Shown one piece after another: positions 1,814 through 32,027 of a stretch of DNA of 39,069 nt. A program made the position numbers and the translations under genes. Within the stretch, counting starts at the first letter, position 1. The number at the start of each line of letters is the position of its first letter. Under the pieces are notes generated by a model. The model searched no databases and had not been told where the DNA came from. It worked only from the letters and a program-made list of their open reading frames with translations. Origin of the DNA: Oscillospiraceae bacterium (lineage in GTDB: Bacteria > Bacillota > Clostridia > UMGS1883); NCBI GenBank assembly GCA_022508735.1, contig JAFLUQ010000004.1, positions 1 to 39,069 on the forward strand, read 5' to 3'.

Positions 1814-4678
1814 CTATTTATTATATATTTCGATGATCCATGTTTGATTTCCGTCGGCCCCAAGCTCCTCCTGTGTAAAGCGGCCGTCCTTTTCTGTCAG
1901 GTACAGGCCGGAAAGCTCAGACCTTATCAGGTAAGTTCCGCCCCCCTGCTTTTCGAGGAACCAGCGCTGATTTTCGCCTCCCGCTGTGCGATAGGCGATT
2001 ATGCCTATGCCCGGGTCGGGATTGTGGTTGAGCACGTCCAGCGCTCTCTTTTCGGTGGAGTCGCCGGCTTCAAACTCGGCGCTGCTCTCCACGATATATG
2101 AACCGGTGAGCGTGTATGTGAAGCTCCAGAGCTGCGTTTCACCGGAAGCAAATTCTGCTGTGGTGAGGGCTTCTACCATTGGCTGATCGGGGCTGTAGCT
2201 GAGCGCCGCGCCGTCTTTGCCGGTGATAGTATACAGAGGCTTCGCTTCTTCGGCCTTCTCAGCCTCCGGCTCGGAGGCTTTTTCTTCAGCCTCGGGATAG
2301 GTCAGCCCGAGCGGCTCGGCCTTGATATTCACGCCGTTTGCCTTTGATATCATTATCCAGCTTATAACCGGGTCAAGGTTTCCGGCTATTGCGTGCTGAT
2401 CGCGAACTGTGGAAACGGTTATCGTGCCGTCGGCGGCGATTATCCCGCTTCGTGATATAACCTTCTGCCCGGCAGCGGGCGCAAGGCCGTCGGCCGCAAT
2501 GTAACCCTGCACCTTGATGTCCACCTTGCGGGCCTTTTCGCCCCACGGGTCATATACTCCCACAAACACGTCATAGGCCTCGCTCGGGTCGACCTCGAAC
2601 TTATATGTCAGTCCGTCGCCCACCTTTCCGCCGTAATCATAGCGGACGGAGCGGAACATATTGCTGTCATCGCGGCGGCCGGAGCTGTTATCGGCAATAT
2701 AGCCCCATGTCTTACCCGTTTTTTCGTCAACGCCATAGGCCTGGTCGGGCACACTGTTAAGAAGCTCGCCGAGGCCGTTTATTACGTCAAATTCCGTCGT
2801 ATTATCTGCGCCGCAGTCGGCAAAGTAGATGAGGTTCTTGGGAATGTTATATATTTCGGCAGTTGTAGTAGTATCGGCAAAAAAACCTTCCACAAAATAG
2901 TGCCCGGGCATATTATAATCTATCCCTGCTCTGCTCCAGTCTACCGGGATATGCGATCTGAATCTTTCACCCTCTGCAAAAATAATGTCCGGGAGCTGTA
3001 CCGTCTCGCCGTATTTAACAAATATTGTATCAGGTTCGATAATCTTAACACCTATATCCTCCAGCGTCCACTCGTCTAACCAGTCTATGCGGATAGTTCC
3101 GTTCTCCTTCACCTCAATGGGCAGCCAGATAAAGCCGCTTTCGTCGTGGTGGGAGGGCCGCCAAGTGTCGGCAATGAAAATAAAGTGGCCTTTTTCGGCG
3201 TCTATGGGCAGGATATATGCGCTTTGACCGCCGTAGGTCAGGTCAGCGCCGTCACCCTTACACGGGTTGCCATGGCGCGTCCACGGGCCGAGAGGGCTCG
3301 GAGCCGTGGCATAGTCCGCCGCGTTAGGATCCCAGCCGGTGCAGCCGCTGGTTATCATATAATAGGTGTTGTTATACTTGAACAGCGCCGGGGCCTCGCG
3401 CCAGCCGCCGGGGATAGCATAGGTGGCCTCGCCCTCGCAGCTCAGGTAGTCGTCGCTCAGGCGGCAAACCGCCAGCGACGAATTCTCATCGGTAGAGAAA
3501 TATATGTAGGCCGCGCCGTCGTCGTCCTGATAAACGGTCATATCGCGCGACATTTTGTCGCCGGGGCGAAAGCTTTCAAGATACTCAAAGGGGCCGGTGG
3601 GGCTGTCGGCCACGGCCACGCCTGCGCGGCTGTAGCCGTACCAGCCGTTGTCGATGTGCATCCACATGACGTACTTGCCTGTCGCCTCGTTATAGAGCAC
3701 CTTGGGCCGCTCAAGCACCTCGCCCACGCGAATATCGCTCTCAGGATACTTTAGCGGCGCTTCGTCGGTACTTTCAAGCATTTCAAGAGCAAGGCCCTCA
3801 TAGGTCCAGTTATAGAGGTCAGAGGAGGAATAGCAGGCCACACCGATGCGCCAACCCCAGCCGGCATAGCGCTGAAGGTGCTCGGGCACCTCGGAGGCTC
3901 CTCTTGCCTCGCCGTACCAATAGTACTTCTGCGTGGCTTCGTCCCAGATAATTCCGCCGCCATGGGCTTGAACAAGGCCGCCGTTCTGATCATATATGGG
4001 AGCACTATTCATGAAGCGATCCCTTTCCGGGAACATGGCGCCGTAGGCCAGAGCAGTCAGCTCCTTAGCACGCGCTTTGTCGCTCTCGCTTCCGTTTATA
4101 AAGCGGTTAATGGCGTCATCATAGTATTTTTCTGCTATCGGAGCCATAAGCTTATTATCAAATTCATCTATATTATTGCGAATGTAATTCAGCATATGGT
4201 CGGTGTTATCGTCGCCAACAGTAACGGGCAATACCGCGGCGAGATCAAGCCTTGTTTCGATAAGCTCCTCAGCTACTTCGGCTGAAACAGTGCTTTGCGA
4301 GCCGTATTCCTCTGTAACTGAAGCAATTTCGCCCTCCCAATAAATAGGAAACTTAGTCAGATTGCGCTGCATAGCCATATACGCCATAGTCCAGGCTTCC
4401 ATGTAAGTTATGGTGTCATTCGGCCTGAATTTGCCGTCATCTATATTTATCACTCCCGCGGCGAGGGCACCCTCGACCATATCAGCATAGCCGTCTTTAG
4501 CGGAAACATCGCTAAAGCTGCCGGAATAAAGCCGTTCGCGAATATCAAAAGCGTCGGCCAGCTTCTCCAAAAATTCCACACGGGTTAAGGCCTCCTCCGA
4601 TCCGAACACCGCTGTCGGCATGGCAGACAGCACCAGCGACAGAGCCATAACAAGGCAGATAATTCGTATTTTTCTCAT
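1814..4678 (-). CDS. Secreted multidomain glycoside hydrolase: signal peptide, SLH-like repeat, GH43-like beta-propeller, malectin-like module, ricin-type (CBM13-like) beta-trefoil
   Basis: Start re-called to the ATG at 4678 (MRKIRIICLVMALSLVLSAMPTAVFG), which has GGGAG 6 nt upstream; the track start at 4705 has no SD. SLH-like segment: FSDVSAKDGYADMVEGALAAGVI...DGKFRPNDTITYMEA. GH43-like segments: GGGIIWDEATQKYYWYGE and ERPKVLYNEATGKYVMW. C-terminal QxW-type motifs: QRWFLEKQ and QTWIIE. Confidence 0.75.
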   Translation of the reverse strand: MRKIRIICLVMALSLVLSAMPTAVFGSEEALTRVEFLEKLADAFDIRERLYSGSFSDVSAKDGYADMVEGALAAGVINIDDGKFRPNDTITYMEAWTMAYMAMQRNLTKFPIYWEGEIASVTEEYGSQSTVSAEVAEELIETRLDLAAVLPVTVGDDNTDHMLNYIRNNIDEFDNKLMAPIAEKYYDDAINRFINGSESDKARAKELTALAYGAMFPERDRFMNSAPIYDQNGGLVQAHGGGIIWDEATQKYYWYGEARGASEVPEHLQRYAGWGWRIGVACYSSSDLYNWTYEGLALEMLESTDEAPLKYPESDIRVGEVLERPKVLYNEATGKYVMWMHIDNGWYGYSRAGVAVADSPTGPFEYLESFRPGDKMSRDMTVYQDDDGAAYIYFSTDENSSLAVCRLSDDYLSCEGEATYAIPGGWREAPALFKYNNTYYMITSGCTGWDPNAADYATAPSPLGPWTRHGNPCKGDGADLTYGGQSAYILPIDAEKGHFIFIADTWRPSHHDESGFIWLPIEVKENGTIRIDWLDEWTLEDIGVKIIEPDTIFVKYGETVQLPDIIFAEGERFRSHIPVDWSRAGIDYNMPGHYFVEGFFADTTTTAEIYNIPKNLIYFADCGADNTTEFDVINGLGELLNSVPDQAYGVDEKTGKTWGYIADNSSGRRDDSNMFRSVRYDYGGKVGDGLTYKFEVDPSEAYDVFVGVYDPWGEKARKVDIKVQGYIAADGLAPAAGQKVISRSGIIAADGTITVSTVRDQHAIAGNLDPVISWIMISKANGVNIKAEPLGLTYPEAEEKASEPEAEKAEEAKPLYTITGKDGAALSYSPDQPMVEALTTAEFASGETQLWSFTYTLTGSYIVESSAEFEAGDSTEKRALDVLNHNPDPGIGIIAYRTAGGENQRWFLEKQGGGTYLIRSELSGLYLTEKDGRFTQEELGADGNQTWIIEIYNK

Positions 4679-4718
4679 TCCACTCCCTCTTTCCCATGCA
4701 AACAATATATCTTATTTA

Positions 4719-5132: not shown

Positions 5133-5306
5133 TTACAGCCAACCCTCGCTTGCACCCATCCAAATTTCAGCCTTTGTTTCGTCAGTGTCAGAAACACTGC
5201 TCATATTGGATTTTTTATTAACCAGATTGGCTGACGCAGCCATCACGTCCGTATCAGGAGTGAGGGTTGTCATCTCAACCTCAGGAGTTTCAAAATACTT
5301 TCTCAT
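5133..5306 (-). CDS. Mini-ORF 1 (57 aa), acidic, no signal peptide; paralogue of 25810..25989; unknown function
   Basis: MRKYFETPEVEMTTLTPDTDVMAASANLVNKKSNMSSVSDTDETKAEIWMGASEGWL. GGAGG immediately follows the stop of the upstream giant gene, and the gap to the ATG is 15 nt. It shares M-[KR]-[KR]-YFE-x-P-x-V and a C-terminal IWxG with the second copy. It is absent from the ORF track, whose shortest listed ORF is 60 aa. Confidence 0.65.
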   Translation of the reverse strand: MRKYFETPEVEMTTLTPDTDVMAASANLVNKKSNMSSVSDTDETKAEIWMGASEGWL

Positions 5307-5321
5307 TTTTATTAATCCTCC

Positions 5322-8300
5322 TTATACTTCTTCAATAAAGTCGAGCTCGCCGGCAACAGTCTCGTCGGCAGCAGCTTCTTCAACCTCAAGAACGAATTCT
5401 ACGTCTTCAAGGTAGATAACAGCCTCAAGAGCCATAGCATCGCCGATCGTTATTGTCTTTCCGTCATTGGATACAGTAACGCCGCTCTTGATATCAGACT
5501 CTTTATCAGAAGCATACTTAATTGTGTCTGCGAATCTTACACCCGCATTGTAAACCTCTGCCTTAAGATCAATGGTGATCGTGTCATCATTATCTGTGAG
5601 GGTCATGAGCAGCTCCGCCTCAGCTGTAAGCTTTCTGTTAGTGAGATAGATACCGCCGTTATTCAGAACCTCCATAGCCTTAACAAGCTGATCCTCTTTA
5701 ATAACAGTATCAGCGTTCTTGGCTGCGAAGTCTGCTACTGCCTGTGCAACAAGGCTGTATACGCTGACAACAGCTGTTGCCTTGCTTTCAACTTCGTCGG
5801 TCACACCAACCGCCTGATAGCTGGCGTTAGTATCGGCAGTGGAGAAGGCCACGCCGGACTCACCGTTAAGCTCGCCAACTACGGGGTTCTCCTTATCGCC
5901 GTTCTTGTAAACCTTCACGCTGTCACCGCTGTAGGTGAAGTCGATAGTGAAGTCTTCAGCCTCATCATCCCAGCCAAGGCTTACGATAGGAGCGGGAATA
6001 GTTGCAGTTACTTCTTTGATCTCATCCTCACTGAGAGCAGTATTGAAGAACATGAAGTTGTCGATAGTGCCGTTGAAGTCCTGATTGTTGCCACGGTTAG
6101 CAGTATCAGTATACCACTGGCCACGACCGATGAGGTTGCGGTCTGTTGCGCCGGCGATCTGATATGCCTGATAGGTAACATTTGTGCCTGTAGCCTGAGT
6201 AACGATATTGTTATCACTGTCTACAGTATAAACTGTTGTTGTCTTTGTAGCAGCGTTATAGCTTGTAACAAGCCAATACTCGCCGCTAAGATATGCTCCG
6301 CCCTGAACCATAAGCGTTGTGCCGCCGGCATACTTGACACCCGCCTGATATCTGTTTCCGTCACGGGTATTAAGTCTGGTAAACATGCTGTTGCCGGAGT
6401 TCATTCCGAAGTCATAAAGTCTGGGATCCTGTCTGTCTGTACCACCGGAGATCTTCTGAACAACGGTGTAGCTGCGAACGCCCTTAAGGAAGTCATGAGG
6501 AACGTTCAGATAGCCGTTTGTATCCCAACCGTCAGCAGTGTTGGCGGTAAGGTCAAGCTTGCCGTTGTCAAAGTTAGCCTTGCTTCCCTTAACCTCGGCG
6601 TCAAGGCCGTTGCCGCTTACGTCGGGAACAATATTTCCGTCTACATTGTTGAAATCATAGTAGAACATAAGGTTCTCGTCCATAACGTCAACCTTTGCAA
6701 GCACGGTCACTGTGAACACCTTAGTGCTGTCGCCGGCCGAGGCTGTAAGAGTTACAACATGATCCTCGCCGTCACGGGTAACAGCGCCGGTAGCATCCAT
6801 AACGCCGTCGCCGTCTACAGTCCAGGTCACCGTCTTTCCGTCAGCCGTCTTAGTGGGAAGAACAAGGTCGGTAACAGTCTCAGACGGAATAGAGAGACCA
6901 TTGATAGTGTCAACACTGTCTTCATCAAACTCCTCGGCCGCGGCGCGAACCTCAGCCTGAGTGAAGGCCACATCGGCAGAGCGGAGATTGGTGATCATGC
7001 CCTCTCCGCCAAGTGTAACTGTGTCGCCAAGAGATACGTTCACGTTCTGCATGGTGGCGTCGATAAGGCCGTTTACATATGTAACGAGCTCAGAGCCGTC
7101 ATAGGTAATTGTGTAGTTGATCCAGCCGAGAGAACTCTGGCCCTTTGTGCCGCCGGTGCCGCCAAGACTGAAGTACCAGGCGGAGTCACTAAACAGATTC
7201 TGGCTCTTTTCAACAACACTGCCAACTGTGAGCTTGGGAGCCACAGCAGCATAATTGTGTGTGTTGTCAACTGTCTGCTTTTCAAGGTCGATCTTAAGGT
7301 TGCCGCTCTTGAGAAGAGTACCTTCGGCAGCCATATCGCTCTGGAGAAGCTCCAGAGAAATAGTGAACTCCTTGCCGGCAGTAATGGGAGCGGTCGCTGT
7401 AACGCCGTCGCCAACGCCGTAAATTTCTTCATCAACGCCGTCAAACTTGTTTACAACCGGAAGCTCCTTAAGCTCAGTTGTTGTCATCATCTGAACGGGA
7501 TAACCCAGACCGCCGTGCTGGTTGCTGTGGATCCAGTAGTAATAGTCACCGTTGAACCAGGTCAGGCGCAGGTCGCCTTCCTCGCTGCCGTTGGAAACGT
7601 AGGGACGGGCGTTATCCTTCATGGAATCCTTTGTGATAAATTCTTCGTCTGCAAGATCGGTGTAACTATCGTTAAGAGTCCATTTTACGATCTCCCAAAT
7701 TCTGCCGAATGCGCCGTCAACAGGAATAGATGCATAAACGATATGGGGATCAGCCTTATCAATGGACATACCGCCGCTGTAGCAGTTCTCAGTAGCGGGT
7801 GTCTGGTGGAAGAATGTGTTGAAGGAGGGATCGGGCAAATCGAAAATGTTCCAGCCACTGCCTGTATATGTAGCATAGTAGTAGTTGTGAACCTTTTTGC
7901 TGCCGTCGATCTTGACCATAGCTATAACAGGGAACTCAACCTTATTTTCACCTTCAACTCTTTCGTCAAGAGCGATCTCCCAAACCCAGTCACGGTAGTT
8001 GGCTGTACGATCTACCACATAATTGGGGTCGGTCTCGTTACCGCTTACAGTGTATACATTGCTCGATTTAAGGTCGCTGAGCTCGTTGCCCTTCATATCG
8101 TAAAGCTTGAGCTCGGGGATGCTGATATAGTTGCAGTAGATGGGGTTTGTACCTACATTGTCAGGATGTGTGCCGGTATAGGTGAGCCAGATCTTGTCCT
8201 TGCCGTTGGAAGCGTACTTGGCATAGGGCCTGATATTGCTGCCCAGAGTGGACTGCACGATCTGTCTGGGCCCCCAGGTAAATTTAGTTGTAAAGCCGTT

Positions 8301-9794
8301 ATCCTTAGAAGGCATTTCGAGCTGAGCGATCGTAGGATGCCATTCCACACCTCTCCATGTGAGATAGATGTGATCAGGGTCGCTTTCAAGAATAACAGGG
8401 TTGGGATATGTTGTATTCTTCTCCGTAGCGAGTCTGTGCTCCTCACCAAAGGTAGTAATATCATAGGCCTCCTTAGAGACTCTGTAGTAGAAGCAGGGTT
8501 CGTCGGTATGACGGGAGTAGAATATCATAATCTTATGGTCGGGGAGTTCGAGGAAGGTGGGGTTGTTATGGTCGTCGGGCTGCAGATTGCTGCGGACGAG
8601 TACTTCCTCGTAGTCGCCGGTAAGATTGTCATACTGTGTAGCTCTTACGTTACCTACGTTATCTATGTAGCCAATATAAGTGTAGTTCACGCCGTCACCC
8701 TTAACAGTAAGCGTTCTGGGATCGGCGAACCAGCAGGTGGCTCCGTCGGCGATAACGCTGCCGGTAATACCTGCGCCGTCAAATTTATTATACATGATCG
8801 TAATTACGTTGTCACTTCCTGCCTTAGGAGTTATAGTGAGGGTAGAATCCTTTTCACTATAGGTGTAGATGTCATCGCCGATTTTAATAGGCGCTGTGCT
8901 CTGGGGAACATATGTGAAGCTTTCTCCAACGGTAGCGAGAACCTCCTTATCATCCACACCGGAGGGGGTGCCGTCGGAAAGCACGGTCTTAACCGTCACC
9001 TTAACTACCTTTTCACTGTCAACATTAGCAGAGATCTTAAGTCCCTGAAGAGCCATAGCGGCATACTGGTTATTCCACTGAGGAATATTTGCGCTGATGC
9101 TGCCAAAGCCATTTATGCTGTCGATAGTCTCAGTTGTGATGACTTCAAATTCACCGTTTTTATCACTGTCATAGCTGTAGGTAACAGTATATGTTCCATC
9201 AGCAGCCTTTACCGCCTCAATGCGGAAAGGTACACCGCGCATACCGAGAACCTTGCTGCGATCATGGCTTACAAGAGCATATGCTGTACCGTTCACGCCG
9301 CCGATATCCATACCGGCATTCTGCACGCCGCCTGAGGTCGCGCTTCCCGCGTCAGTATAAACTGTGGCAAACTCTTTGCCGTCGACGTCAAGGAAATGCC
9401 ATCTCTGATACAAATCAGAGGCTTCCTGCGTTGCATAAGTGTACTCGATAACGATTTTATCGCTACCGGCGGTTATGGCGCCATCATCAAAGGTCGCAAC
9501 CTTTGTTTCGTCAGTTCCGTTTGCCCTTGCGCCTGTGCGGAAGAACATGAGTCCCGCAACACCCCATGGCGCAACGTTCCATGCGCCACCTGTGCTCCAC
9601 TGGGAACTGAACAGGGCACCACCCTCGTTGGCAGACCAGCCATAATCGGCAAGCTGGATATCGCCATGAGTGGCGGTGTCAATTTCGGCCGCGTCAAAGA
9701 CCACTGTTTCCTCAACAGCCGCAAATGCGTTAAGCACCGGGCATATTGAAAGAATCATTGCCAAGGCCACGACCAGGGAAATAAATTTTTTCAT
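5322..9794 (-). CDS. Giant secreted modular protein 1 (1490 aa): signal peptide, shared N-module, Ig-like domain, BNR_4-like beta-propeller, LamG, Ig-like, LamG, shared C-module
   Basis: Signal peptide MKKFISLVVALAMILSICPVLNAFA. BNR_4-like motifs QPDDHNNPTFLELPDHKIMIFYSRH. LamG_3-like segments LMFYYDFNN...GNGLDAEV and FNGTIDNFMFFNTALSEDEI. The C-terminal 221 aa are homologous to the C-terminus of 26003..30061. AAGGAGAG lies 7 nt upstream of the ATG. Confidence 0.85.
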   Translation of the reverse strand: MKKFISLVVALAMILSICPVLNAFAAVEETVVFDAAEIDTATHGDIQLADYGWSANEGGALFSSQWSTGGAWNVAPWGVAGLMFFRTGARANGTDETKVATFDDGAITAGSDKIVIEYTYATQEASDLYQRWHFLDVDGKEFATVYTDAGSATSGGVQNAGMDIGGVNGTAYALVSHDRSKVLGMRGVPFRIEAVKAADGTYTVTYSYDSDKNGEFEVITTETIDSINGFGSISANIPQWNNQYAAMALQGLKISANVDSEKVVKVTVKTVLSDGTPSGVDDKEVLATVGESFTYVPQSTAPIKIGDDIYTYSEKDSTLTITPKAGSDNVITIMYNKFDGAGITGSVIADGATCWFADPRTLTVKGDGVNYTYIGYIDNVGNVRATQYDNLTGDYEEVLVRSNLQPDDHNNPTFLELPDHKIMIFYSRHTDEPCFYYRVSKEAYDITTFGEEHRLATEKNTTYPNPVILESDPDHIYLTWRGVEWHPTIAQLEMPSKDNGFTTKFTWGPRQIVQSTLGSNIRPYAKYASNGKDKIWLTYTGTHPDNVGTNPIYCNYISIPELKLYDMKGNELSDLKSSNVYTVSGNETDPNYVVDRTANYRDWVWEIALDERVEGENKVEFPVIAMVKIDGSKKVHNYYYATYTGSGWNIFDLPDPSFNTFFHQTPATENCYSGGMSIDKADPHIVYASIPVDGAFGRIWEIVKWTLNDSYTDLADEEFITKDSMKDNARPYVSNGSEEGDLRLTWFNGDYYYWIHSNQHGGLGYPVQMMTTTELKELPVVNKFDGVDEEIYGVGDGVTATAPITAGKEFTISLELLQSDMAAEGTLLKSGNLKIDLEKQTVDNTHNYAAVAPKLTVGSVVEKSQNLFSDSAWYFSLGGTGGTKGQSSLGWINYTITYDGSELVTYVNGLIDATMQNVNVSLGDTVTLGGEGMITNLRSADVAFTQAEVRAAAEEFDEDSVDTINGLSIPSETVTDLVLPTKTADGKTVTWTVDGDGVMDATGAVTRDGEDHVVTLTASAGDSTKVFTVTVLAKVDVMDENLMFYYDFNNVDGNIVPDVSGNGLDAEVKGSKANFDNGKLDLTANTADGWDTNGYLNVPHDFLKGVRSYTVVQKISGGTDRQDPRLYDFGMNSGNSMFTRLNTRDGNRYQAGVKYAGGTTLMVQGGAYLSGEYWLVTSYNAATKTTTVYTVDSDNNIVTQATGTNVTYQAYQIAGATDRNLIGRGQWYTDTANRGNNQDFNGTIDNFMFFNTALSEDEIKEVTATIPAPIVSLGWDDEAEDFTIDFTYSGDSVKVYKNGDKENPVVGELNGESGVAFSTADTNASYQAVGVTDEVESKATAVVSVYSLVAQAVADFAAKNADTVIKEDQLVKAMEVLNNGGIYLTNRKLTAEAELLMTLTDNDDTITIDLKAEVYNAGVRFADTIKYASDKESDIKSGVTVSNDGKTITIGDAMALEAVIYLEDVEFVLEVEEAAADETVAGELDFIEEV

Positions 9795-9861: not shown

Positions 9862-9942
9862 GCATTATTTGTTGATTTTGCACAAATATTCTCGCACATG
9901 AGCCTTTCGCACTTACCTCTTTATTTTGTAAACTTTTTTTCA

Positions 9943-9981
9943 CAAAATAACCCCTTTGTTTTTCACAAAGGGGTTATAAAA
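9943..9981 (-). terminator. Intrinsic terminator downstream of recA
   Basis: ATAACCCCTTTG / CAAAGGGGTTAT forms a 12-bp perfect stem with a 7-nt loop, followed by TTTT on the minus strand. Confidence 0.8.
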
Positions 9982-9993
9982 GCAATTATCTTT

Positions 9994-11070
9994 CTACTCC
10001 TCATCGCCCTCCGACGAAGATGGGATACCATAGGTCACCTCGGCTATCTTCATGCGTACAAGGCTGTCTATCATCTGAGTGAATTCGGGGTTTTCCTCCA
10101 TGTACTTACGAACGTTGTCGCGGCCCTGCCCGAGACGGTTGCCCTCATAGCTGAACCACGCTCCGCTGCGCTTTATTATGCCGAGCTCCTCGGCCACGTC
10201 AAGTATGCAGCCTTCTTGGCTGATGCCTTTGCCGTAGATTATGTCGAACTCCGCCTCCTTAAAGGGGGGCGCCACCTTATTTTTAACGACCTTAGCCCGG
10301 GTTCGGTTACCGATGAACTCAGCACCGTTCTTAATGGCGTCTATCCTTCTTATGTCAAGCCTTACCGAAGCATAGAACTTGAGAGCCCGGCCGCCGGCAG
10401 TGGTCTCGGGGTTGCCGTACATAACGCCGATCTTCTCACGGAGCTGATTTATGAAAATACAAACGGTGTTGCTCTTGTTAACCACACCTGCCAGCTTACG
10501 GAGAGCCTTGCTCATAAGACGGGCCTGAAGGCCCACATGAGAGTCGCCCATCTCGCCCTCGATCTCGGCCTGGGGCACCAGTGCGGCAACCGAGTCAACG
10601 ACTATAACATCCAGCGCACCGCTGCGGCACAGAGCCTCGGTTATTTCAAGGGCCTGCTCACCGGTATCGGGCTGAGAAACTATGAGGCTGTCAACGTCCA
10701 CGCCTATAGCCGCGGCGTAAACAGGGTCAAGGGCGTGCTCAGCATCTATAAAGGCCGCCTCTCCGCCGCGCTTCTGTGCCTCGGCCACCACATGAAGGGC
10801 GACCGTGGTCTTACCGCTGGACTCAGGGCCGTAAATTTCGATTATTCTGCCACGGGGAACGCCGCCGATACCGAGCGCCAGATCCAGACTCATGGCGCCG
10901 GTGGGGATCGCGTCCACATTCAGGCGCGGAGTCGCGCCAAGGCGCATAACGCTGCCCTTGCCGTATTGCTTCTCTATCTGGCCCATAGCGAGAGTAAGGG
11001 CCTCCTTTTTAGCTTCAGCCTCCTGTATGTCAACGACAGGGGCAATTTTTTTCTTATCATCTTTAGCCAT
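9994..11070 (-). CDS. recA: Recombinase RecA (358 aa)
   Basis: Unambiguous RecA sequence: [15 protein letters not shown], the Walker [20 protein letters not shown] and [23 protein letters not shown]. Confidence 0.98.
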
Positions 11071-11098
11071 TTTTATCTTCCTCCTTTTGTTTACTTAG

Positions 11099-11112
11099 CG
11101 AACATCTGTTCT
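11099..11112 (-). promoter_or_regulatory. LexA (Cheo/SOS) box overlapping the recA transcription start region
   Basis: The minus strand reads AGAACAGATGTTCG, a GAAC-N4-GTTC match to the Gram-positive SOS-box consensus CGAACnnnnGTTCG. It lies 2 nt downstream of the -10. Confidence 0.7.
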
Positions 11113-11113
11113 C

Positions 11114-11142
11114 ATTATATAACGAATTGTCCGATTTGTCAA
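11114..11142 (-). promoter_or_regulatory. Sigma-A promoter of recA
   Basis: On the minus strand: TTGACA (11142-11137), a 17-nt spacer, then TATAAT (11119-11114). Both hexamers match consensus. Confidence 0.7.
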
Positions 11143-11150
11143 TAATTTTT

Positions 11151-25767: not shown

Positions 25768-25807
25768 ACGTAAAAACAGTGGGCCATGCGGCCCACTGTT
25801 TTTACGT
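25768..25807. terminator. Bidirectional intrinsic terminator shared by the HAD gene (+) and mini-ORF 2 (-)
   Basis: ACGTAAAAACAGTGGGCC-ATGC-GGCCCACTGTTTTTACGT is an 18-bp perfect inverted repeat that includes the A and T tracts. Confidence 0.85.
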
Positions 25808-25809
25808 GA

Positions 25810-25989
25810 TCAATGATTAAAGCCTTTCCAGATACTGTAATCTTTGGAGGTGTCGTCAGTGAGTTTGTTACTGTAGTCAACGGCATTGATCTTTGCAAGA
25901 TTCATTGAAACAAGCGGCTCATCCATGATGGAATTAGCCGGATCCAGCGCCTCTATGCACACCTGGGGAATTTCAAAATATCTCTTCAT
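25810..25989 (-). CDS. Mini-ORF 2 (59 aa), paralogue of 5133..5306; unknown function
   Basis: MKRYFEIPQVCIEALDPANSIMDEPLVSMNLAKINAVDYSNKLTDDTSKDYSIWKGFNH. Start re-called to the ATG at 25989, with GGAGG 8 nt upstream. The track's start at 26055 would overlap the upstream gene. Confidence 0.65.
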   Translation of the reverse strand: MKRYFEIPQVCIEALDPANSIMDEPLVSMNLAKINAVDYSNKLTDDTSKDYSIWKGFNH

Positions 25990-26002: not shown

Positions 26003-29000
26003 TCAGACTTCTTCCACGAAACTAAGCTCGCCGGAAACGGCCTCGTCCGCGGCACTTTCCGCTATATCCTCAAGCACGAATTCAATGTCCTCAAGGTAGA
26101 TGACAGCGGCCTCAAGGCCGATGCCGTTCAGGCCCACAATTTTGGCACTTGCGCCGTTTACCTCAACGGACAATGATGTTCCGTCAGAAGCCTCAACAGC
26201 CATTTTGTCGCCAAAGGTCAGGCCCGCCTTAACCACGTTTTCGTTGAGCGTGATCTCGTCGCCTTTGAGCTCCATGATTAGCGCAGCCTCATCGTTAAGC
26301 TTCCAGGCGCTATTCTCCTTGATGAGGTAGAAGCCGCCGTCATTGAGTACCTTGAGCGCGGCATCCTTCTGATCGGATTTGATAGGAGCATCAAAGTTCT
26401 TAAGAGCCTTAGCCACAAGGCTGTATACACTGGCAGGATCGCTGGCGTTAACGCCTACATAACCATTAGAGTCAGTCACCTTGGCGGTGTATATGGCGTT
26501 GGTGTGAACCGGAGCAACCGCAATACCCTTGATATCATCATTTACTGTAATATCCTTCTCGCCGATAGATGTAGTACCGTTAAATACTTCAACTGTGTAT
26601 GTTCCGGTCACGCCCTCGCCGAACAGGAAGTCAACAGTAAAGTTCTTACCATCCCAGCCAAGAGCAGGAGTTACACTGGCAACATCAACTGTCTTGCCAA
26701 CAATTTTAATGTCATTGCCTCTGAGTCTGTACAAACCACCGTGGCTGTCGCCGAAGATAACTACCTTTCCGCTTTCACCAATGATTCTGTTCATCTTTTC
26801 CGCATCAAGGGAAATGCTGACTGGAGTTGCGTCAGTGTTATCCGCATTAACACTATTAGTGTAGAAAGCCACCTTGTTTTCATCGGTAAAATTGGCAGTT
26901 ACTGCCGTAAAGTCGGAAATATCCAGTTTCTGATAATCCTCATAGCTGATTGCATAGAAATTCACATTGTTTGTACCGGTAGTATAGTCACGCAGTCTTG
27001 TTGCGTCAAGCGTGTAAGAATTATGTCCTCTTTCAACCTCAAGAATCGCAACACCGACACGTCTGTTATCGCTGGCTGCACCCACAGCACCCCAGTTATA
27101 TGCCGAAAAATTGGTATCCAATGTTCCGCCTTCGTAGTATGCCAGTGTGCGGCCTACAGTCTTGCGCTCGTCTTTCTGTATGGTGTAAACATTGCTCGGC
27201 AAAGCAGCAACCGTAAGATCGATACTTCCGTTATAGGGAACAGGTATAACTGCTGAACCTGCCGAAGTAGGCGTATCAGTAACAACGTAGTAGCCGTAGT
27301 CTCCACCCTTGAATAACTCGTGACCCTCGGTATAAAGCGTACCAACCATGAGCTGCTTTGTTTCGGACTGCTCGATCGTGCCTTTATAATTAACTGTAAT
27401 ATCCTGAGCCTCATTGCAGCTCTTGAGAAGTCTAACGATATCGTCAGTGTTTGACCCCGCATTATTGACCATAACAACAGGGAGCGAGGAAAGCCAGTTG
27501 GGATAGCTTGTTCCACTAAGGGCGCTGTACAAATTATTATTATCCGTAGTAGCCTGATTTACAAGGCTGGTAAGAATACTCTCTGACTGCGCCTGCATTA
27601 CGCGGAACATGTCAACGATCGGATGGTTTCCATCTCTTTTGCTCATTTTATCGATCTGATTGTTTATATAACCCGCACTGAAAGAACTCTGTATTTTTGT
27701 ACCAGATGAAGGCTCATAATTCGAGTAAAGCTTTCCGGCAAAGGATTCCGCACTGCTGTATCCGCGAAGAATAAATTTGCCGATACTTGAAAGAGTTGCT
27801 TTATCCCTGCCAAAAAGAACGATGTTTGCCTTTGTTCCGTTATTTGTAAGTCCTCCGTAGGTTTGTGCCGCTAAATCAGAATCCTTATTAAGGGTCACAA
27901 AATCATTTATTCCGGTTGTCGTCAGCAGGCTGTCAATGGCGCGCCATGTGTCAGGTGTACTGTTGCCATCGGAATTAACATTATCCCATGCCTCCTGAAA
28001 GTCAAGAACAATTATTTCGCCGGGATGCTCCTTAGCCCACTGTGCCACCGTAACCATTATCGGTGCAAATTCGCCGCTGAGGAATCCGTGCGTTGTGTAA
28101 AACACACTGTTTGTATGAGGTGCAGTATGTTTTGTTTTAAATATAATCCCAGTTTCTATAACGAAATCACTTGATGAGCGCGAAAGGCGAATGTCAAAAT
28201 AACGAACACCGCTGTCTAGCAGCCCAAGAGCATCCTTTTCCTGTGCCTTGCTTGCCGATGCTCCTGTGCCGCCATCAGCCTTTGTTACTGTTTGAGAACC
28301 CGTGTCACCCTGCTGACTTCCAGCTGCATCCATCTTATTCGTTATCTCCGCCGTGAACGCATCATGCGCCCCCAGCATATTAAGAGAAATAAAGGGCGTG
28401 TCATTGGCAACATTATCAAAGAAGCGTTCCGGTTTTGTTGCCTCATATGTAAGGGTTATGGTTTTGTCGCTTGTATTTACTTCCTTTTTCTTAAATACAT
28501 ATCCCTCTTTATACGGAATTACAAGGTTGGGGAATATCTTTTCTCCATTATATCCGAGGTCCGTCGATTCTGTCGTGGTAACTGTATATTCATCAGCCTT
28601 CACGCCGCTGAATTTAACCGTGTAATTCTGAATGCTGCTGGCCGCTTCGGGAGCGTAGAACTTAACGTTGCTTATCTTCAGGTCGCCGTTAGCGCCGCTG
28701 CCGTTGGTAAGCATGGTGATCGTGTTTATGTAATCGGAATCTGTACGGAAGTGACGTGTGCCGCTCTCATACGTGCTGCCGTCTGCCTTGGTAAGAGTAA
28801 GGTTATATTCATCTGTATAGGCATTGGCAGTCATAAAAATTCTATAAGTCTCGCCTGCCGCAACGGTAGTTATTGACGGAAGATTTGAATTATTACCCTT
28901 GCCATCACCGCCCGTGGGGCTAAAGCTGCCATTTGTGCCAAGACCGATCTGCCCGGCACCGAAAATCTTACCGTCCGCGCCTATCTGAACGGAGGAGTCA

Positions 29001-30061
29001 CGTATGGCGTTAACTGTCAGATCAAATTCCATGCTGAATTCCTGTGACAGACTGACGGGCAGATATACAACATTGCCCGGCTGTCCGTTGTAGGATTCCT
29101 GATCCGGCATGGCAAAGGTCATGGGGTAAACGACAATGGTGGTGCTTACGTCAGTCCCTCCGGCCGTACCTTTAAGTTCAAAGGTTTTTACATCTGAACC
29201 GGTTGTAAAATCAGCGTTTTCCCATGTGACAGGAGTCTCTGTTCCACGGATAGAAACTGTTTTAGGAAGAATGGGTTCGTTACCGCTGATCACGCTTATT
29301 GGTGCAACATAGGATTCCGGCATCACAGCACCGATTGTAAGGTCAATGAAACCGATATGCTCGTAATTATCCCAATAACCGCCAAGACCTTGAATCGCTC
29401 CAAAACCATTAATCACATCCGCAGCTGAATTATTTGTTGCAACCTTTTTACCGTCTACATAGTATTCAACGGTATGGGTGGCTCCGTCGGCATTGTTATA
29501 TGCAACAATAGCCATATCCGTGCCAATTTCAGGATAGCCCATAGCATAATATCCGTCGCTATTTGTTTCATCAGCAACCGTATGGTTTTTATCTAATTTA
29601 AGAAAAGCAATTTCTTTTCCGTTTGAATCTTTGAAGGAAAAGTCATAATAGCATGTGCCACCCGCACCCGGACCGACCTGCCCCTTATGCTTCCACTCAA
29701 TTATTACCTTTTCGGCACCTTTAGCCTGAGCAGCTGCAGGGGCGGAAACAGTCGCATTAAGGTCAGTATTAACCGGGCTGTAAAACTGCAAGGTTATTCC
29801 CTCATTATATGATCTCAGATTTGCATACCCGGCATTGACAGATGTCGACCAGCCCGACCAGTTCGACGCAACCGGCGCGTTACCATCGTTGTCTGTTCCC
29901 ACTAAGCTGTTGTCAGGAGCGCTCCATATTACGGTTGCACCTTCAATAGTGTTGATAACCGTAGTAGACGAAGCTGCCCCGGCGGTGATCGCCAATCCTG
30001 GGACCAGGGCCGTGATCATGGCTATTGCCAAAAGCATGGCCAAAAGTTTTTTGGTTTTCAT
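26003..30061 (-). CDS. Giant secreted modular protein 2 (1352 aa): signal peptide, shared N-module, Ig-like domain, LamG-like domain, PI-PLC X-domain-like module, beta-rich region, shared C-module
   Basis: Start re-called to the ATG at 30061 (MKTKKLLAMLLAIAMITALVPGLAITAGA), with GGGAGGA upstream. The track start at 30229 overlaps asnB. PI-PLC-like motifs: LGAHDAF, GVRYFDIRLS and YTTHGF. The C-terminal 220 aa are homologous to those of 5322..9794. Confidence 0.85.
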   Translation of the reverse strand: MKTKKLLAMLLAIAMITALVPGLAITAGAASSTTVINTIEGATVIWSAPDNSLVGTDNDGNAPVASNWSGWSTSVNAGYANLRSYNEGITLQFYSPVNTDLNATVSAPAAAQAKGAEKVIIEWKHKGQVGPGAGGTCYYDFSFKDSNGKEIAFLKLDKNHTVADETNSDGYYAMGYPEIGTDMAIVAYNNADGATHTVEYYVDGKKVATNNSAADVINGFGAIQGLGGYWDNYEHIGFIDLTIGAVMPESYVAPISVISGNEPILPKTVSIRGTETPVTWENADFTTGSDVKTFELKGTAGGTDVSTTIVVYPMTFAMPDQESYNGQPGNVVYLPVSLSQEFSMEFDLTVNAIRDSSVQIGADGKIFGAGQIGLGTNGSFSPTGGDGKGNNSNLPSITTVAAGETYRIFMTANAYTDEYNLTLTKADGSTYESGTRHFRTDSDYINTITMLTNGSGANGDLKISNVKFYAPEAASSIQNYTVKFSGVKADEYTVTTTESTDLGYNGEKIFPNLVIPYKEGYVFKKKEVNTSDKTITLTYEATKPERFFDNVANDTPFISLNMLGAHDAFTAEITNKMDAAGSQQGDTGSQTVTKADGGTGASASKAQEKDALGLLDSGVRYFDIRLSRSSSDFVIETGIIFKTKHTAPHTNSVFYTTHGFLSGEFAPIMVTVAQWAKEHPGEIIVLDFQEAWDNVNSDGNSTPDTWRAIDSLLTTTGINDFVTLNKDSDLAAQTYGGLTNNGTKANIVLFGRDKATLSSIGKFILRGYSSAESFAGKLYSNYEPSSGTKIQSSFSAGYINNQIDKMSKRDGNHPIVDMFRVMQAQSESILTSLVNQATTDNNNLYSALSGTSYPNWLSSLPVVMVNNAGSNTDDIVRLLKSCNEAQDITVNYKGTIEQSETKQLMVGTLYTEGHELFKGGDYGYYVVTDTPTSAGSAVIPVPYNGSIDLTVAALPSNVYTIQKDERKTVGRTLAYYEGGTLDTNFSAYNWGAVGAASDNRRVGVAILEVERGHNSYTLDATRLRDYTTGTNNVNFYAISYEDYQKLDISDFTAVTANFTDENKVAFYTNSVNADNTDATPVSISLDAEKMNRIIGESGKVVIFGDSHGGLYRLRGNDIKIVGKTVDVASVTPALGWDGKNFTVDFLFGEGVTGTYTVEVFNGTTSIGEKDITVNDDIKGIAVAPVHTNAIYTAKVTDSNGYVGVNASDPASVYSLVAKALKNFDAPIKSDQKDAALKVLNDGGFYLIKENSAWKLNDEAALIMELKGDEITLNENVVKAGLTFGDKMAVEASDGTSLSVEVNGASAKIVGLNGIGLEAAVIYLEDIEFVLEDIAESAADEAVSGELSFVEEV

Positions 30062-30115
30062 TTTCTGTTTTCCTCCCTTTTTGTTTTTAACTTGAACCAA
30101 TATTAACCTGAGTAT

Positions 30116-30144
30116 AGTATACCATAACCACACCCCGGACGCAA
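30116..30144 (-). promoter_or_regulatory. Sigma-A promoter (extended -10) for giant protein 2
   Basis: On the minus strand: TTGCGT (30144-30139), a 17-nt spacer ending in TGg, then TATACT (30121-30116). Confidence 0.55.
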
Positions 30145-30172
30145 GTGTTTTTTTGTTTTTTTGATAACGAAA

Positions 30173-30196
30173 CCCCGGGGCCGAAGGGCACCGGGG
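30173..30196 (-). terminator. Hairpin terminator downstream of asnB
   Basis: The minus strand reads CCCCGGTGCC-CTTC-GGCCCCGGGG, a 10-bp stem with one mismatch, followed by TTTCGTT. The T-tract is weak. Confidence 0.5.
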
Positions 30197-30206
30197 CGAG
30201 TCTATG

Positions 30207-32027
30207 CTATATTTCCACTTTAACATCATATTTTCTCATCCAATAGTTTATCTGCAGCATATATGCAATGGTCTGGGGCGTTGTCATGAGCTGGCCGTAC
30301 CAGGGCTGGGCCTTGTCGGCAGTGAACAGGCCCTCAAGGGCGGCCTTATCGGCGAGGCTGAGAAGAGGTGAGCCGCTGTCTTCAATAACCTCTCGGAGCA
30401 GGCCGGATACCGCCTTAAGATAACCGGGGTTATGGGTCTTCGGATAGGGACTCTTTTTGCGCCAGAGCACCTCCTCGGGCAGCAGGCCCTCCATGGCCTT
30501 GCGGAGCAGTCCCTTTTCACGCCCCTCGTAGTTCATATAATCCCACGGCACGCTGTACATATATTCCACGATGCTGATATCGCAGAAGGGCACACGGGCC
30601 TCCACGCCGCTGTACATGGTCATGAAGTCCTTGCGGCCAAGGAGCGTCTGCATGAACCAGTCAAAATTCAGGCGCATCATTTCCTTCATGCGGTCATCGG
30701 TGGGTGAATTGCCGCTGAGCTTATGAGCCTCGCTGACGGTCTTATAGTACCTTTCGGAAACATAATCCTGCGGTGCGATAAGGCTTTGCAGCTCAGGGCG
30801 GAGAAAGCTGTAGCGGTACATTGTGGACTGTGACCAAGGGAAGCCCTCGGCCATGCGGATAGTTTCGTCCCGATACCACGGATAACCGCCGAAGATCTCG
30901 TCGGCGCACTCTCCGCTGAGGCCCACCGAGAAATTCTTCTTTATCTCCCTGGCAAAGACTAAAAGCGAAGAATCCACGTCAACCATGCCGGGCAGGCCTC
31001 GGGCATCCACCGCCTCGAACAGGGCCTGAGTCAGCTCAGGCGTGTCAATAAGGATACGGTGGTTGGTCACGCCGAGAAAGCTGTTCATCATATTTATATA
31101 CGCTTCGTCGCTGTTAGGCTGGAACTTGCCGGGCGTAAAGTACTTGCCGTTGTCCACATAGTCTACGCTGTAGGTGTGGAGCTCCTTGCCGCGCGCGGCC
31201 AGCTCTTTGGCTGCCACAGCGGAAATTATGCTGGAATCCAGCCCACCGGAAAGGAAGGTAAAGATCGGTATATCTGACACTAACTGGCGCTTTATGGCAC
31301 TTACCACCAACTCCCGGGTGCGCTCTATGGTCTGCGGCAGAGTGTCGGTATGCTCGCGCTGTCGAAGCTCCCAGTATTTACGATAATTTAATTTTCCGTC
31401 CTTTACCATACCGCAGCAGGCCGGAGGCAGCTCCTTTATCCCCTTTAATACGCCACAGCCGGGCGTGCGTCCGGGGCCTATCAGGAACAATTCCTTTACA
31501 GAGCCTATGTCAATTATGGGTTTTATGTCTTTATGCCGGAGCAAAGCCGCCACCGATGAAGCAAACACGAAGCCGCCGCCTGTCTCAGCGTAAAAGAAGG
31601 GCTTAACGCCCATGCGGTCACGGGCGACGAACAGCTCATGACCGTTCCAGACGGCGAATGCAAAGATGCCGTTAAACAGGTTCAGGCAGTCCTCGCCCAG
31701 CTCCATATAGGCACGGAGAACCACCTCGGTGTCTGACGCGGTGGAAAATACCACTCCGCGCTCCTTGCATCTGTTACGTATATCGTCGGTGTTGTACAGT
31801 TCGCCGTTGTAGACTATGGTGTATCCGTCGCGAGTCATAGGCTGGAGACCGTTTTCCAGATCTATGACCGACAGGCGGGTGTGTATCAGCGCAGCGCCGT
31901 CATCGCTGAAAAAACCTCGCTGATCCGGCCCGCGCCTCCAGAGCTCCCGCTGCATCTCAAGCTGATAGTCCTCCATGGCAGTTTGTTTTTTTAGACGGGG
32001 GGAAATTTCCCCGGCAATTCCGCACAT
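30207..32027 (-). CDS. asnB: Asparagine synthase (glutamine-hydrolysing), 606 aa
   Basis: N-terminal nucleophile MCGI. GATase-2 region RLSVIDLENGLQPM...NGELYN. Synthetase PP-loop FLSGGLDSS. Confidence 0.9.
   Translation of the reverse strand: MCGIAGEISPRLKKQTAMEDYQLEMQRELWRRGPDQRGFFSDDGAALIHTRLSVIDLENGLQPMTRDGYTIVYNGELYNTDDIRNRCKERGVVFSTASDTEVVLRAYMELGEDCLNLFNGIFAFAVWNGHELFVARDRMGVKPFFYAETGGGFVFASSVAALLRHKDIKPIIDIGSVKELFLIGPGRTPGCGVLKGIKELPPACCGMVKDGKLNYRKYWELRQREHTDTLPQTIERTRELVVSAIKRQLVSDIPIFTFLSGGLDSSIISAVAAKELAARGKELHTYSVDYVDNGKYFTPGKFQPNSDEAYINMMNSFLGVTNHRILIDTPELTQALFEAVDARGLPGMVDVDSSLLVFAREIKKNFSVGLSGECADEIFGGYPWYRDETIRMAEGFPWSQSTMYRYSFLRPELQSLIAPQDYVSERYYKTVSEAHKLSGNSPTDDRMKEMMRLNFDWFMQTLLGRKDFMTMYSGVEARVPFCDISIVEYMYSVPWDYMNYEGREKGLLRKAMEGLLPEEVLWRKKSPYPKTHNPGYLKAVSGLLREVIEDSGSPLLSLADKAALEGLFTADKAQPWYGQLMTTPQTIAYMLQINYWMRKYDVKVEI

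Follow-up and report, generated by a model that had tools for sequence, protein, structure and literature searches.

A C-terminal domain family with a coupled micro-protein gene on secreted proteins of uncultured gut Clostridia

Introduction

What is the function of a C-terminus that is shared between two large secreted proteins of one uncultured bacterium? The question is raised by a stretch of DNA of 39,069 nucleotides, which we call the window, comprising positions 1 to 39,069 of contig JAFLUQ010000004.1 (GenBank assembly GCA_022508735.1, Oscillospiraceae bacterium). It encodes two proteins, here called protein 1 and protein 2, whose last 220 or so residues resemble each other, and an original prediction made from the letters alone took this shared part to be a candidate novel sorting, anchoring or partner-binding domain. 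We find that the shared part, hereafter the module, represents a new C-terminal domain family of ~225 amino acids (aa), present in a narrow clade of uncultured gut Clostridia on many proteins with Sec signal peptides. The gene carrying the module and a gene for a micro-protein of ~57 aa form a conserved, near-obligate two-gene cassette.

Results

Two secreted proteins share both of their ends

The two genes of the window lie as follows.

5322..9794, minus strand: gene of protein 1 (1490 aa), from the open reading frame (ORF), its translation and Pfam
26003..30061, minus strand: gene of protein 2 (1352 aa from MKTKKLL; the ORF reaches 30229, 1408 aa), with an identical product on record as P0002

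Signal peptides were called by inspection and regular expression, without SignalP. In protein 1 the signal peptide is followed by an N-terminal domain shared with protein 2, then by a BNR_4 domain (aa 371-652), aBig_2 and a Laminin_G_3-like region, these three assigned with Pfam, and by the module. Protein 2 is built from a signal peptide, the shared N-terminal domain, an Ig-like region, a PI-PLC-X-like region and the module; Pfam gives only a weak Big_4 match on protein 2 itself, and PI-PLC-X was detected only in a relative within the family.

When the complete proteins are compared by BLASTP, their C-termini align in one stretch of 257 columns (39% identity, 53% positives, E = 2e-27). The C-terminal similarity is therefore real and far above chance. 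It begins ~10-15 residues ahead of the LGWD motif at which both copies had been said to start, a statement that holds to within 1-3 residues: 5322-5987 on the minus strand encodes 221 aa plus the stop codon from IVSLGWD, and 26003-26665 on the minus strand encodes 220 aa plus the stop codon from ALGWD. The coordinates given earlier are correct, with the addition that the genes lie on the minus strand, and the paired strings quoted in their support are all present (SVYSLVAQA/SVYSLVAKA, VLNNGGIYL/VLNDGGFYL, VIYLEDVEFVLE/VIYLEDIEFVLE and GELDFIEEV/GELSFVEEV).

The proteins also have a second region in common just after their signal peptides, with 25% identity over 291 columns (E = 3e-7). BLASTP places it as follows.

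8973..9728, minus strand: shared N-terminal domain of protein 1 (aa 23-274)
29276..29959, minus strand: shared N-terminal domain of protein 2

This domain of ~230-270 aa has an INGFGSI motif and no Pfam or PDB-profile match. We find it in 26 of 69 module carriers, and about half of the carriers of full length have it. Many carriers thus have conserved 'bookends' around a variable middle. The original prediction described a conserved C-terminal domain on otherwise different secreted enzymes, and this holds across varied signal-peptide proteins; the shared N-terminal domain of ~270 aa is an addition to it.

A rare, clade-restricted family with many paralogues

The family was collected by an exhaustive profile search of 1.84 billion representative proteins, with clusters defined at 50% identity. 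It returned 67 representatives at E <= 1e-3, 52 at E <= 1e-10 and 22 at E <= 1e-30, amounting to ~66 clusters; one of the 67, the glycine-rich repeat protein P0064, looks spurious. A word-indexed homologue search with the module gave 1-2 matches only, and it is the exhaustive search of representatives that makes the family visible. The module ends no more than 3 aa from the C-terminus in 54 of 63 members, the others being mostly fragments or cases where the hidden Markov model (HMM) envelope stops short of a canonical tail. Signal-peptide-like N-termini were recognized by regular expression and inspection in 48 of the 63, and most of the rest are 5'-truncated gene calls. There is one module stretch per protein in the profile search, never a tandem or a triplet.

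The proteins that carry it are diverse. The 44 full-length carriers contain 23 different Pfam families, among them Laminin_G_3, Big_4, aBig_2, BspA-type leucine-rich repeats (LRR), CBM_4_9, BNR_4, heparinase II/III with CBM96, beta-helix, F5/8-C, GH43, GH32N, Peptidase_M60, PI-PLC-X and MucBP. They include glycoside hydrolases, polysaccharide lyases, M60-like peptidases, PI-PLC-like enzymes, LRR proteins and lectin-domain proteins. None of the 44 has an SLH, dockerin, cohesin or wall-binding domain by Pfam. SLH and dockerin domains do occur on other proteins of the same genomes, and are mutually exclusive with the module on one polypeptide.

Among species-representative genomes the module is confined to a handful of metagenome-assembled genomes (MAGs) of uncultured Clostridia/Oscillospiraceae, mostly from rabbit gut. 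Narrow-pattern scans find at least 8 copies in Lapin-008__bin63 and at least 7 in Lapin-021__bin62. Scanning the species-representative genomes with the C-terminal variant of the window (…EEV) gave no matches, and two scans of Joint Genome Institute (JGI) metagenomes, covering both C-terminal variants of the family, were also empty. No functional name is attached to the member clusters listed, and the sole recorded name is 'hypothetical protein [Oscillospiraceae bacterium]'. The module family is rare, narrowly distributed, clade-restricted and multi-paralogue.

The module matches no described anchoring family

The isolated window modules match nothing in Pfam (E <= 10), NCBIfam or PDB sequences. 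A profile of 38 module sequences has no match in the PDB, and NCBIfam run on the same 38 gives scattered single-member chance matches and no consistent family. Foldseek with two structural models finds no match at E <= 1e-3 in the PDB or BFVD. Its best matches are Fn3 domains, covering the first subdomain only (E = 3.5e-3, probability ~1.0, target-normalized TM 0.46-0.53), one weak match being to an Fn3-like protein of Clostridium thermocellum (3mpc); there is no Pfam fn3 match. The second, alpha/beta subdomain has no fold match in the PDB or BFVD and no PDB profile match.

The individual candidates were all rejected. The dockerin domain (PF00404) has no match at E <= 10 in the window proteins or modules, none in the 44 carriers and none by Foldseek; the Dockerin_1 model does detect dockerins in neighbouring M60 proteins. 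Cohesin (PF00963) gives no Pfam or Foldseek match. SLH (PF00395) matches neither the modules nor the 44 carriers, and this model too works in these genomes, finding the GH43 neighbour in the window at E = 2.6e-6 and a protein of locus L006 at 2.7e-33. The C-terminal sorting domain of type IX secretion systems (T9SS) has no NCBIfam counterpart here, and the host carries Firmicute sporulation genes. No member has an LPxTG sequence in its last 60 aa, and the tail is acidic rather than basic as in a sortase signal. WxL, LysM, choline-binding and CWB2 domains are absent from the 44 carriers (E <= 1e-4) and from the modules (E <= 10). The claim that the module is new is therefore borne out against Pfam, NCBIfam, PDB profiles and Foldseek, with no match to a described family of the anchoring, cohesin, dockerin, SLH or T9SS type and a weak Fn3 likeness confined to the first subdomain. 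Of the two outcomes that the original prediction named as counting against it, a known family or confinement to these two paralogues, neither was observed. Searches of protein-family libraries, structure libraries and the literature returned no homologue or description of the module or the micro-protein, the papers found being on T9SS, CBM37 or general subjects only.

Conservation is concentrated in an unpacked end piece

The module can be divided into two subdomains and an end piece, located as follows.

5766..6005, minus strand: subdomain 1 of protein 1, Fn3-like beta-sandwich (module residues 1-80; LGWD and TN..Y motifs), from AlphaFold and Foldseek
5436..5765, minus strand: subdomain 2 of protein 1, alpha/beta (residues 81-190; SVYSLV, N.VL..GGIY, AG[LI].F), from AlphaFold
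5325..5435, minus strand: end piece of protein 1 (residues 191-227), with the stop codon at 5322-5324
5385-5420, minus strand: hairpin-like strand VIYLEDVEFVLE within that end piece, followed by an acidic linker
5325-5351, minus strand: terminal GELDFIEEV of protein 1
26003..26686, minus strand: module of protein 2 (227 aa plus stop), from alignments and HMM (E = 7.8e-63)
26006-26116, minus strand: end piece of protein 2, with VIYLEDIEFVLE at 26069-26104 and GELSFVEEV at 26006-26032

An AlphaFold model built with the 38-sequence alignment (m5810519a8c59) has an overall predicted local distance difference test score (pLDDT) of 87 and a predicted template-modelling score (pTM) of 0.78. Subdomain 1 is modelled at pLDDT ~95 and subdomain 2 at 80-97, with the last ~37 residues at 50-67 and unpacked. 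Conservation in bits per column is 1.79 in the Fn3-like subdomain, 1.96 in the alpha/beta subdomain, 2.56 in the last strand, 2.24 in the linker and 2.79 in the terminal nine residues. The end piece is thus the most conserved part of the family although it is unpacked in the model. The phenylalanine five residues before the C-terminus is at least 90% conserved, and the invariant positions of the module are L, N, Y and G. This pattern points to the 36-residue end piece as the functional hot-spot of the module.

The strand of the end piece is amphipathic, with the pattern h-x-h-[ED]-x-V-x-h-E-F-V. In the lineage of the window the end piece reads …VIYLEDVEFVLE-(acidic 10)-GELDF[IV]EE[VI], and in the rabbit MAGs …LSLDSVNIEFVETLIEELEAEGADAAQDF[IV]PEL. 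The C-terminal hexapeptide has the consensus [DE]-F-x-[EP]-E-[VIL]-COOH in an acidic tail of 22 aa, and the EFV strand always lies 21-25 residues from the C-terminus. Among 54 complete C-termini, 52 have a relaxed form of the terminal motif and 41 have its strict form, [DENS][FL][IVTL][EP]E[VIL]$. The last 22 residues contain on average 7.9 acidic (D+E) and 0.13 basic (K+R) residues, the linker being devoid of lysine and arginine; the net charge is -5 to -21 for the core and -5 to -11 for the tail. The original prediction pointed to an acidic tail ending in …EEV. That ending is present, but the hot-spot extends over the last 36 residues and a second lineage variant ends in …PEL. Each genome is uniform in its tail variant, which is lineage-specific (…PEL versus …EEV/EEI/EIL), as would be expected under co-evolution with a common partner.

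The conserved 3' end of the gene might have been a DNA or RNA element, or the result of recent gene conversion. We reject both, since the tails of paralogues use the same codon for only 64% of identical residues, at a nucleotide identity of ~80%. Synonymous sites vary, so that selection acts on the peptide and not on an RNA or DNA element.

A micro-protein gene follows the module gene

A short gene lies directly behind each of the two module genes.

5133..5306, minus strand: micro-protein gene 1 (57 aa, MRKYFETPEVEM…EIWMGASEGWL), 15 nucleotides (nt) past the stop codon of protein 1, behind AAGGAGG
25810..25989, minus strand: micro-protein gene 2 (59 aa, MKRYFEIPQVCI…SIWKGFNH), 13 nt past the stop codon of protein 2, behind GAGGAGG
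25768..25807, minus strand: terminator-like hairpin (18-bp stem, then a T-run), directly after micro-protein gene 2

Micro-protein 1 is found by the HMM at E = 4.9e-34 and is a called gene in public data (P0118); micro-protein 2 is a called gene in locus L008 and has the public entry P0117. A gene of ~60 aa had already been called just after the module gene in loci L001 and L008, and the window products and the called products are homologous. There is no terminator-like site between module gene and small ORF, and the one that follows the second pair closes a two-gene operon of protein 2 and micro-protein 2.

The association holds in both directions. Taking the module first, an HMM search of all loci finds a same-strand ORF of 54-64 aa after 27 of 29 module genes, 12-19 nt past the stop codon and behind GGAGG. 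Taking the peptide first, four peptides drawn from the database each lie 17-18 nt past a gene with the module at its end, and all 16 genome loci with the pattern MKKEFKA also lie behind a module gene, giving 20/20 in all. This arrangement suggests that each carrier gene is translationally coupled to its micro-protein gene. The two exceptions, L002 and L003, encode heparinase II/III-like lyases with no micro-protein gene, and have a GC-rich terminator-like hairpin directly past the stop codon.

L002 10684-10760: hairpin in place of the micro-protein gene
L003 10711-10790: hairpin in place of the micro-protein gene

Their carrier tails are otherwise canonical (…GEVDFVEEI and …GEIDFVEVI).

The micro-proteins have the consensus MKKxFxxPx[VI]E..x[LF]…[VI]M…D…WxG, with invariant M1, F5, P8 and W49. 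They contain no cysteine and no signal-peptide-like or transmembrane stretch, and their acidic residues occupy no consistent ring-forming position. The database holds 44 independently called micro-protein clusters, all of 53-61 aa, without a Pfam domain or a name, and we found no relative in the PDB. Peptide orthology tracks the upstream gene; peptides behind small carriers in four different assemblies, for example, resemble each other. The module/micro-protein pairs are therefore old and stable.

Three known types of small protein were considered and rejected. WXG100/ESAT-6-like proteins (PF06013) have ~100 aa; the micro-proteins have 53-61 aa, carry W-x-G 3-10 residues before their C-terminus, and have neither a Pfam domain nor a PDB match. 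For a precursor of a ribosomally synthesized and post-translationally modified peptide (RiPP), no maturase, RiPP recognition element (RRE) or protease gene lies beside the window cassettes or those of L108-L116, a result that covers neighbourhoods only and would allow for distant maturases. On inspection the register of a double-glycine leader does not fit.

Two further observations concern the cassettes themselves. Locus L017 (3-3321) has two module and micro-protein cassettes in tandem, the first micro-protein gene starting with GTG. The spacers of L009-L027 (for example L009 3136-3155) are semi-conserved past the Shine-Dalgarno sequence, reading …GGAGGCTGATTGA[ACT]ATG in many paralogues, which may reflect common descent.

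The module as a separate protein beside dockerin enzymes

At four loci from different assemblies we find a protein of 367-370 aa made up of a signal peptide, a domain of 125 aa and the module. It is encoded directly behind a protein of ~1790 aa with Dockerin_1, fn3 and Peptidase_M60 domains, and is itself followed by a micro-protein gene. The three-gene units (M60 dockerin protein, small carrier, micro-protein) are these.

L001 3732-10373: three-gene unit
L004 2612-9289: three-gene unit
L005 4181-10915: three-gene unit
L006 4160-10861: three-gene unit

P0018, in which an M60 domain and the module are fused, was considered as a Rosetta-stone link to the dockerin M60 proteins; only the catalytic core aligns (23% identity, E = 1e-7), so that the link is weak. 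The conserved triple suggests that the module may be a separable add-on needed by the secreted enzymes of this clade, and that it could be supplied in trans.

The window and its neighbouring genes

The window is a piece of chromosome, matching an 89.7-kb metagenome contig in ENA. The genes around its cassettes are housekeeping genes: pepP-like, thiI, a class-V aminotransferase (iscS-like), cinA, recA, an ABC exporter pair, parC/gyrA-like, shikimate genes, an ECF S-component, folC-like, asnB, yqfD, phoH, ybeY and dgkA. YqfD and YabP sporulation genes identify the host as a spore-forming monoderm Firmicute. Its RecA is merely 74-79% identical to that of the nearest species-representative genomes (UBA1234, Candidatus Ornithomonoglobus, uncultured Clostridia), so there is no close genome among them.

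1814-4705, minus strand: secreted GH43 and RicinB enzyme with an N-terminal SLH domain (E = 2.6e-6), from Pfam
30207-32027, minus strand: asnB-like gene directly upstream of protein 2, with an intact glutamine amidotransferase (GATase) domain

The SLH domain of the GH43/RicinB neighbour indicates that the organism also uses SLH anchoring, on proteins other than module carriers. Lasso-peptide cyclases are homologues of AsnB, and the asnB-like gene was considered as a lead in this direction; we reject it because the GATase domain is intact and the gene is absent from other cassette loci. It is probably a housekeeping gene. Protein 2 probably starts at the ATG at 30061 (MKTKKLL…), where the recorded product and the signal peptide begin, rather than at 30229. 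The 56 codons upstream (30061-30229, minus strand) run into the end of the asnB-like gene and probably remain untranslated. An ORF of 415 aa at 9898-11145 on the plus strand was rejected as a gene, being the antisense shadow of recA (9994-11070, minus strand; RecA Pfam E = 1.5e-140). Among the neighbours in the window we looked for an ordinary-sized partner gene and found none; the ABC exporter pair has no C39 domain.

Discussion

A proposed docking module with a dedicated partner

The reading that we favour, at close to an even chance, is that the module would be a docking or surface-retention device, with the end piece as its interaction epitope and the micro-protein as a dedicated partner, likely a cytoplasmic cap or chaperone. 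The module would then serve in place of SLH or a dockerin. The exposed end piece could donate its strand or tail, either to a common receptor or to further module copies, and such donation would retain enzymes on the cell surface or within an assembly of several enzymes. The micro-protein would be the one-to-one partner of the end piece, made right after the C-terminus of each carrier. Most likely it would cap this reactive C-terminus, keeping it inert and export-competent until Sec translocation, following the logic of FliS and flagellin. A cytoplasmic cap or chaperone is the most economical reading of the small gene because the coupling is tight, there is one per paralogue and a signal peptide is lacking. 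A more specific version is tentative and perhaps doubtful: a clade-specific display or assembly system in which the C-terminal donor hairpin and tail plug into a receptor or into each other and each is capped in the cytoplasm by its micro-protein, making a Sec analogue of the chaperone-substrate pairs of flagellar and type III export and a functional substitute for cohesin and dockerin.

The favoured reading has counterparts in known systems. In Ruminococcus albus, CBM37 is a C-terminal module for surface attachment that is species-restricted and rarely combined with dockerins (PMC4081043). Like our module it is lineage-restricted and shared by many proteins; it occurs in tens of copies per genome on glycoside hydrolases, polysaccharide lyases, carbohydrate esterases and non-catalytic proteins, and takes the place that dockerins have in related bacteria in keeping enzymes on the cell surface. 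It differs in having ~100 aa, in the possibility of tandem copies and in binding polysaccharides, whereas the module has ~225 aa, is single and terminal, and has an acidic end peptide and a micro-protein gene. The likeness is one of distribution logic alone, with no sequence or fold relation established. PMC4081043 also cites the paper Ezer 2008 in this connection.

The X-module-dockerin (XDoc) and cohesin pairs of cellulosomal Clostridia and Ruminococcus are likewise built on a C-terminal, multi-paralogue assembly tag on diverse secreted enzymes, with a support domain before the interacting element, and dockerin proteins are present in the module genomes, one encoded beside the module-only protein. 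The module differs in having no Dockerin_1 or Cohesin match, no duplicated Ca2+-binding F-hand and no Foldseek match. The C-terminal domains of T9SS substrates in Bacteroidota (PMC4804311, PMC9143113) also provide a conserved C-terminal signal, containing a beta-sandwich, on unrelated signal-peptide proteins, and lead to surface attachment. Here the host is a monoderm Firmicute, there is no match to these domains, and the module is twice as long and has an acidic tail.

For the micro-protein the closest parallel lies in substrate-specific cytoplasmic chaperones such as FliS, which binds the C-terminus of flagellin and prevents premature polymerization (PMC8306008). In both cases there would be a small cytoplasmic protein for the C-terminal interaction region of an exported protein, proposed here from gene linkage. 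The micro-protein has no homology to these chaperones, is associated with Sec rather than type III signals, and comes as a separate copy for each paralogue. In the staphostatin-staphopain operons (PMC8443034) a secreted protein is similarly followed by a small partner without a signal peptide, and staphostatin acts inside the cell. Staphostatins are ~110-aa beta-barrel protease inhibitors directed at a catalytic domain, whereas the partner here tracks a non-catalytic module of unrelated enzymes.

Several points weigh against the favoured reading. L002 and L003 have no peptide gene, and thus the micro-protein is not universally required in cis. Direct contact between peptide and module is suggested from gene linkage alone. 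Carriers have a Sec signal peptide and micro-proteins do not, so that the two could meet only before export unless the peptide leaves the cell in some other way. The variation at the C-terminus of the micro-protein does not track the tail variant. The strongly acidic character of the module argues against direct binding to anionic wall polymers, and names no partner. No receptor or third component was found, both window genes sitting among recA, asnB, parC and thiI. Finally, the 125-aa N-terminal domain of the small carriers was considered as a cohesin and rejected at the sequence level, having no Pfam or PDB-profile match and an hhalign probability of 0.2% against a verified CipA cohesin.

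Alternative explanations

An unlikely alternative, and the best of those that remain, is that the module is a non-covalent wall anchor. Its folded core would bind a wall glycopolymer or peptidoglycan in the manner of CBM37, SLH or WxL, its tail would act through cation bridges or be accessory, and the micro-protein would only help in folding or export. This is consistent with a distribution like that of CBM37 (lineage-restricted, C-terminal, on many enzymes, exclusive with dockerin and SLH) and with the near-module-only protein that adjoins a dockerin enzyme. However, conservation is highest in the unstructured acidic end piece and not on a surface of the folded core, and the module is never present in tandem or triplets. 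Secondary wall polymers are usually anionic, and the net charge of the module is strongly negative throughout.

It is also quite improbable that the micro-protein is itself the exported product, a pheromone or a RiPP-like or bacteriocin-like peptide that the module would process or present, unless the two are simply co-expressed. In many divergent copies per genome, a leader (MKKxFxxPx[VI]E…[VI]M) and a WxG end are conserved on either side of a variable middle, which would fit this; a conserved N-terminus, variable core and conserved end recall scattered RiPP precursors and rap-phr-type cassettes. The F-x-x-P-x-[VI] element resembles the YxxPxL leader motif, which is a lead only. Yet there is no cysteine, signal peptide or double-glycine register in the peptide, no maturase, RRE or C39-transporter gene near any cassette examined, and the asnB-like neighbour, missing at other loci, retains its GATase domain intact. 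We know of no RiPP system that has strict 1:1 linkage to a protein domain as a feature.

Similarly low in probability is a substrate-targeting or adhesion module, that is a carbohydrate-binding module (CBM) or an adhesin for host or plant glycans in which the Fn3-like part would act as a spacer. Carbohydrate-active enzymes, on which C-terminal CBMs and Fn3 spacers are common, make up many of the carriers, and one of the weak Fn3 matches is that from C. thermocellum (3mpc). The module is, however, also attached to M60 peptidases, PI-PLC-like enzymes and BspA-type LRR proteins, its alpha/beta fold has no CBM match, and the invariant terminal peptide and coupled micro-protein would be left unexplained.

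We regard as very unlikely an inhibitor or immunity pair without surface docking, in which the module would be harmful or self-assembling in the cytoplasm and the micro-protein its antidote, on the logic of staphostatin and staphopain. Sec-dependent polymorphic toxins have this order of genes, an exported protein followed by a small partner. The invariant residues (L, N, Y, G) are not of a catalytic type, and polymorphic toxins show the opposite of what is seen here, a conserved shared part behind N-terminal cargo that differs; moreover at least 8 copies per genome are found on ordinary enzymes. The order of exported protein and small partner lacking a signal peptide is nevertheless that of scpAB and sspBC (PMC8443034). 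A recent duplication limited to two paralogues, or chance, is refuted by copies that are only 39% identical and by ~66 clusters of many architectures, which come from several MAGs and samples, one MAG alone having at least 8 copies.

Significance

A reusable C-terminal tag on secreted enzymes is of a known kind; what is new is the fold, its acidic terminal signal and the micro-protein coupled to it. The module bears on how uncultured fibre- and mucin-degrading Clostridia may retain enzymes at their surface by means other than cohesin-dockerin, SLH and sortase systems. The module marks the secreted-enzyme repertoire of one clade, with at least 8 carriers in one MAG, and so provides a handle for enzyme discovery in metagenomes. 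For a Sec substrate it is unusual to be strictly paired with a micro-protein that has no signal peptide. If this micro-protein does act as a cap or chaperone specific for the C-terminus, it would represent a new class of export helper, and a rare case of a micro-protein family with an obvious partner. As a tag for display or assembly, the short invariant C-terminal peptide and its compact module could be of use. The module and the micro-protein, as two new domain families, merit entries in the databases, and so does one uncharacterized N-terminal domain.

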